From positions 2,880,001-2,944,000 of the forward strand of contig CBDCWI010000002.1 in the NCBI GenBank assembly GCA_965223325.1: DNA of 64,000 nt, written 5' to 3'. Shown here one piece after another: positions 1,410-1,631 of the stretch. Under the pieces are notes generated by a model. The model was not told where the DNA came from and made no database searches. It was given only the letters and a program-made list of their open reading frames with translations. The translations under genes were made by a program, and so were the position numbers. Position 1 is the stretch's first letter; every line of letters starts with the position of its first letter. Source of the DNA: Candidatus Multivoradales bacterium (lineage in GTDB: Bacteria; Acidobacteriota; Thermoanaerobaculia; Multivoradales; Multivoraceae).

Positions 1410-1631
1410 CTAGGACGCGAGAGCGGCAATCACCTCGGAAGGTTCCGGGTAACGACCTTCCTGGTGTTTCGAGAACACCAGCTTGCCGTCGACGAAGACG
1501 TCAAAGACGCCGCCTGAACCACGGTCGAGTTCGACGTCAACCGAAGGGTCGGCTTTCTTGATGGCAGCCTCCAGACTGGAGGCTCGGGGCAAGTAGTTTC
1601 AAGCCCCGCAGTAGGTGATGACGACTTTCAT
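1410..1631 (-). CDS. Rdx family (SelT/SelW/SelH) selenoprotein, CxxU motif, 73 aa
   Basis: GAGGA RBS then ATG at 1631. Reads [13 protein letters not shown](1601-1599)[15 protein letters not shown]...[26 protein letters not shown] in a single frame, with a hairpin after the UGA. Confidence 0.92.
1566..1598 (-). promoter_or_regulatory. Putative bacterial SECIS element
   Basis: Perfect 8-bp stem AGCCTCCA-GTC-TGGAGGCT with a G-containing apical loop, starting 14 nt after the in-frame UGA. Confidence 0.75.

Follow-up and report, generated by a model that had tools for sequence, protein, structure and literature searches.

A minus-strand gene divided at an in-frame TGA is predicted to encode a SelW-like selenoprotein in a Candidatus Multivoradales bacterium

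In the 64,000-nt stretch of Candidatus Multivoradales DNA analysed here (hereafter the window), one short minus-strand reading frame stops at position 1599 and a separate 60-aa ORF is listed at 1410-1592. Are these the remnants of a broken gene, or two pieces of one gene whose internal TGA is translated? The original prediction favored the latter: the ORF track was proposed to halve a single gene at an in-frame TGA, the product to be a CxxU protein of the Rdx/SelW type, and the UGA to be decoded as selenocysteine (Sec). Translated with TGA as U, the minus strand from ATG 1631-1629 to TAG 1412-1410 (1410..1631) encodes a 73-residue product from 73 codons and a TAG stop, with a single in-frame TGA. 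A Shine-Dalgarno-like GAGGA (1641-1637, minus strand), read from the sequence and putative in function, lies ahead of ATG 1631 with a 5-nt spacer. The first residue of the redox motif is specified by the Cys8 codon (1608..1610, minus strand) and the TGA is codon 11 (1599..1601, minus strand), giving a C8-G-A-U11 motif; the last letters of the protein, ALAS, directly precede the stop. The ORF list thus bears out the proposed division, with the two entries being parts of the same gene, and gene finders cut this SelW-like gene in two at an in-frame TGA that is predicted to be read as selenocysteine. On the sequence comparisons described below, we consider it very probable that minus-strand positions 1631-1410 form one undamaged gene, that its 73-residue product is a SelW-like selenoprotein of the Rdx family, and that the UGA is decoded as Sec by means of a hairpin.

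Profile searches with the read-through protein identified it as a member of the Rdx family. Residues 2-70 aligned to positions 1-71 of the 74-position Pfam profile PF10262 (Rdx) with an E-value of 2.1e-19 and 69.9 bits, compared to a cut-off of 22.6, and the NCBIfam model TIGR02174 (CXXU_selWTH) scored 65.3 bits against a cut-off of 34.2. In alignments with human MIEN1 (2ljk, YCEPCGF) and Agrobacterium Atu0228 (2fa8, YCTQCNW), U11 falls on the second Cys of their CxxC motifs. Comparison with these two family models, and of the Sec residue with its counterpart in homologues, had been suggested as a check on the read-through protein, and both the scores and the U-to-Cys alignment agree with its assignment as a CxxU protein of the Rdx/SelW type. 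We also considered a narrower assignment. The protein resembles the NF041051 (SelTWH_Campy) equivalog, with residues 3-71 matching positions 1-69 of the 70-position profile (E=1.1e-24). However, its score of 86.4 bits lies under the curated cut-off of 88, so it falls outside this equivalog and membership was rejected.

An AlphaFold2 model built on 20 relatives had a mean pLDDT of 96.6. In the model a strand (residues 2-8) is followed by a helix (14-27), three strands and then further helices, and C8-x-x-U11 therefore lies in the loop joining strand 2-8 to helix 14-27. The best Foldseek matches were crystal structures of bacterial SelW-related proteins (2fa8, which is Atu0228, 2obk, 2oka, 2ojl, 2p0g and 3dex), with TMq values of 0.85-0.92, rmsd values of 1.0-1.9 A and the redox motif in the same place. 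These Cys-type bacterial Rdx proteins differ from the window's protein in having CxxC rather than CxxU, in their length of about 100-108 residues and in sequence, with 24-36% identity to it. MIEN1 and mouse SelW (2npb, TMq 0.82) ranked lower, and thioredoxins appeared further down. By sequence, MIEN1 was the best match among solved structures (E=5e-10). The modeled protein is accordingly predicted to share a thioredoxin-like fold with the solved SelW-related proteins, and eukaryotic SelW and MIEN1 (2npb, 2ljk) likewise belong to the Rdx family and have the same fold.

If the TGA is a Sec codon, how widely is it retained? When 41 genomes of the order, the window's own included, were searched in six frames, 39 gave a SelW-like match. 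Among the 43 matches listed, 42 contain exactly one TGA; the sole listed match that lacks it begins at query residue 16, that is, past the Sec position. Two same-family genomes (G005 and G008, 94% and 92% complete) gave no SelW-like match with the window's query and have selA above the cut-off; the missing match may reflect gene loss or an assembly gap. We examined 20 of the relatives' loci, the window's own among them, with 1.5-kb flanks. C-x-x-TGA is found at the same place in all 20, with the Cys8 codon invariant, and is followed by N/S-Y-x-P. The 62 codons past the TGA stay open and conserved, and protein identity between the relatives' proteins and the window's product is 49-63%. A second Rdx-like match was seen on another contig of the same-genus genome G001 (G001:C3:1283351-1283518); it covers query residues 16-71 and has no stop within it.

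Conservation of the TGA extends well beyond the order. In a set of 80 wider loci, drawn from MAGs and isolates labelled Burkholderiales, Myxococcota, Acidobacteriota, Planctomycetota, Campylobacter and others, TGA occupies the Sec position in 79. A motif pattern counted 78 of the 80; it missed one locus (L057) whose segment reads CTRUKY, which brings the count to 79. The only wider locus with another codon at this position comes from a Bacillota MAG (L087, 3001-3204), where CGA (Arg) gives YCVERGY. This CGA may be a sequencing error, or the copy may have decayed or truly lost its redox centre.

A perfect 8-bp stem with a G-containing loop, beginning 14 nt after the TGA, had been put forward as a SECIS-like element. 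Folding recovered this hairpin, AGCCUCCA-GUC-UGGAGGCU, at 1566..1584 on the minus strand: nucleotides 1584-1577 form 8 perfect pairs with 1573-1566 around a GUC loop (1576-1574), starting 14 nt past the TGA. By itself, the 66-nt stretch has only a modest folding advantage over shuffled sequence (z = -1.88, with 6 of 200 shuffles folding equally well), and the case for the hairpin therefore rests on comparison with relatives. We aligned 57 bases from the TGA onward, ungapped, for the 20 loci. RNAalifold returned the window's hairpin as the consensus of these 20 sequences, with columns 18-25 pairing with columns 29-36, and the spacing between TGA and stem is unchanged in the relatives. Standard pairs occupy 91.3% of cells, compared to 24-51% in a control that slides the 3' partner by 1-3 columns, and three of the eight pairs have changed on both sides, in 14 cells. 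None of 500 shuffles matched the observed covariation score or the percentage paired; these shuffles ignore kinship, and it is the slide control that accounts for relatedness. The loop residues G26 and U27 are invariant in the 20 loci. Since the stem lies within coding sequence, compensatory base changes entail coupled amino-acid changes: in the relatives' loci, a U-A pair in the stem goes with the protein sequence SSLEA and a G-C pair with AAGLAA. The hairpin thus also constrains the sequence of the protein. The proposed element was found where it had been placed and is conserved with compensatory changes. An Rfam scan of 1380-1700, with E-values up to 10, found no curated family that matches the hairpin; its five matches (HIV-1_SL4, a CRISPR repeat and snoRNAs) are unrelated and all far under their gathering scores. 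In an excerpt of PMC1088965, a G in the small apical loop is a named feature of bacterial SECIS elements.

Does the organism have the means to insert selenocysteine? The window's genome (6.69 Mb in 2 contigs, 98.2% complete) contains a selC gene that scored 71.9 bits with the tRNA-Sec model and was called tRNA-SeC by ARAGORN, with anticodon TCA. Two more matches to the tRNA-Sec model, just over the Rfam cut-off (L002 and L003), proved to be tRNA-Ser genes and not a second selC. In profile searches selA scored 449.1 bits, selD 222.8 bits and selB 296.9 bits, the last rising to 327.4 bits when the C-terminal piece, a neighbour in frame, was added. Across the order, 40 of the 41 genomes have selA above the cut-off, and only G009, which is 90% complete, does not. 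A search for selA, selB, selC and selD had been named as a check on the reading and all four are present, which together with the conserved TGA and hairpin supports the original proposal that the UGA specifies Sec and that the organism uses Sec. The selD gene (L018, 295-2598, plus strand; G000:C1 around 1389082-1390062) is one 767-aa frame with a fused N-terminal oxidoreductase domain: Pyr_redox_2 (pyridine nucleotide-disulphide oxidoreductase) spans residues 11-312, and AIRS and AIRS_C span 462-754. This fusion is a Cys-type or other non-Sec SelD because its frame contains no stop. SelD fusions of the oxidoreductase type have been described.

Two other readings of the TGA have to be weighed against decoding as Sec. 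The frame could be a nonsense pseudogene, in which the codon for the second redox Cys (TGC or TGT) has mutated to TGA and only a 10-residue peptide is made. A single base separates TGA from a Cys codon, and translation table 11 does leave the frame interrupted. However, a nonsense mutation cannot explain the observed pattern because the TGA is conserved across relatives and wider loci: the identical codon is present in all 20 loci of relatives whose proteins are 49-63% identical to the window's product and in 79 of the 80 loci from other phyla. Nor does a pseudogene sit well with a downstream frame that has stayed open and conserved over 62 codons, with compensatory changes in the hairpin that follows the TGA, or with a genome that has the complete Sec machinery. 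We regard this reading as vanishingly improbable.

The UGA might instead be read through as a standard amino acid, either by a near-cognate Trp, Cys or Arg tRNA or under a code in which TGA specifies Trp or Gly. The Arg codon of the single Bacillota homologue (L087) could be seen in this light, as could those database entries of homologues that have W there. Among the 13 homologue entries returned by a protein search (P0002-P0014), eight start past the TGA (five at M/LPRA and three further downstream), one has an internal gap at the Sec residue and four are full-length, of which three (P0003, P0004 and P0010) have W and one has R at the Sec position. By contrast, TGA does not behave as a general sense codon, since 23 of the window's 42 stop-to-stop frames of at least 350 codons end in TGA and since it terminates the selenoprotein gene itself in 9 of the 20 relatives' loci (L025, L027, L028, L030-L033, L035 and L039). 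Because these nine loci also end in a TGA stop, the codon is read in two ways within about 75 codons. The W entries are probably, and most simply, translations with a table in which TGA is Trp. Moreover, homologues of the CxxC type have their redox Cys at this position, the hairpin occupies the expected site of a bacterial SECIS element and has the apical-loop G described in the part of PMC1088965 cited above, and the organism keeps selA, selB, selC and selD. Read-through as a standard amino acid is therefore very improbable, and decoding as selenocysteine remains our preferred reading.

SelB- and SECIS-dependent insertion of Sec is established for bacteria in general. We infer that it operates on the window's gene as follows. 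The hairpin 14 nt past UGA codon 11 would serve as a bacterial SECIS element and be bound by SelB carrying Sec-tRNA(Sec), and SelB would deliver selenocysteine at the UGA in place of termination by release factor 2. The product would be a small protein with a thioredoxin-like fold and a Cys8-Gly-Ala-Sec11 centre, which most likely acts as a thiol-dependent oxidoreductase, alternating between the reduced selenol/thiol state and a selenenylsulfide. According to PMC1088965, the CXXU motif hints at a redox role, and an interaction of the SelW-like protein with glutathione had been observed.

Like the bacterial SelW-like selenoproteins (PF10262, TIGR02174), the predicted protein is some 75 residues long, has YCxxU near its N-terminus, a conserved GGxFxV...FSK...GRFP core and a thioredoxin-like fold, and is encoded by a gene in which a short hairpin with G in its apical loop follows the in-frame TGA. 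It shows no substantive difference from them, its nearest database proteins being 60-62% identical. In eukaryotic SelW the SECIS element lies in the 3' untranslated region; unlike in those genes, the window's element is inside the coding sequence just past the UGA, as in bacteria. Descriptions of the SelW-like selenoprotein family in bacteria go back to about 2005. In the Sargasso Sea data of PMC1088965, SelW-like CXXU proteins are the most abundant selenoprotein family, with 48 genes, and PMC1794560 places SelW-like proteins among the bacterial selenoprotein families for which Cys homologues are rare or absent in organisms that use Sec. The window's gene adds a member to this already known family and leaves knowledge of the family unchanged. 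Its correct reading adds one selenoprotein to the organism's inventory, and in the order the gene with its TGA turned up in 39, and selA above the cut-off in 40, of the 41 genomes. The case is chiefly of interest for annotation: routine gene callers divide or truncate this gene. Public entries of the family are often mis-called, and those that start past the TGA or lack the Sec residue show the annotation problem recognised in the original prediction. The window's own protein, whether whole or truncated, was not among the 13 proteins that the protein search returned.

The remaining question concerns the gene's neighbours. Downstream of the selenoprotein gene, here called rdx, lies the N-terminal part of ligA, which encodes an NAD-dependent DNA ligase and runs off the window (2..1390, minus strand; Pfam DNA_ligase_aden, OB, ZBD and Nlig-Ia). 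The original prediction had rdx ending 19 nt before ligA. That ligA follows rdx holds, and the 19-nt gap is possible with a start at GTG 1390; the other candidates are TTG 1429, which gives the longest ORF and overlaps rdx, and GTG 1357, which leaves a gap of 52 nt. In the same genus, LigA starts at an ATG that is preceded by a stop codon and aligns with GTG 1357. By this alignment ligA probably starts at GTG 1357, so that 52 nt is the likelier distance. On the other side of rdx, the gene for a membrane protein with an LPG_synthase_TM domain (1688..2698, minus strand; Pfam PF03706, E=9.6e-39) stops 56 nt short of the rdx start codon.

The original prediction also suggested that rdx is co-transcribed with ligA. 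A stronger reading, in which the two are meaningfully coupled, would make them one operon in which the redox protein serves the zinc finger of the ligase. If that were true, expression of a selenium-dependent redox protein would be tied to the ligase, for example to keep the four cysteines of the zinc finger reduced. The genes are on the same strand 19-52 nt apart, and a scan of 1200-2900 found no terminator-like site between them. The same scan found no promoter-like sites; its single terminator-like site (2261-2245) lies inside the upstream gene and, with no more such sites than in shuffled sequence, is uninformative on operon structure. The synteny of rdx and ligA in relatives, which had been named as a check, speaks against the proposal. 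The two genes are adjacent in 2 of the 20 relatives' loci, those of the window's genome and of same-genus G001, and the G001 pair is divergent (head to head). In the remaining 18 relatives' loci the 1.5-kb flanks of rdx contain no ligA, and neither ligA nor an LPG_synthase_TM gene was found within 3 kb of rdx in any of the 80 wider loci. Moreover, co-transcription alone would not show a shared function. Functional coupling of rdx to LigA is accordingly highly unlikely, and we think it just as improbable that in this genus rdx has moved to a place immediately upstream of ligA and shares a transcript with it. The adjacency seems incidental. The LPG_synthase_TM gene is likewise absent beside rdx in the other 19 relatives' loci. 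Because neither neighbour recurs beside rdx, apart from LigA in G001, gene context gives no clue to the function of the selenoprotein.

Two further features of the surroundings were noted. In the G001 locus (L023, G001:C2:3285688-3288903), about 15 codons upstream of the ligA ATG resemble the window's sequence upstream of GTG 1357, a resemblance that points to a small local rearrangement around rdx. Within 3 kb of rdx the window also contains sulfur- and redox-related genes: one for a rhodanese-domain protein (2716-3432, plus strand) and one for a 448-aa protein (3436-4782, minus strand) whose C-terminal Redoxin/AhpC-TSA domain has a WCPNC motif.
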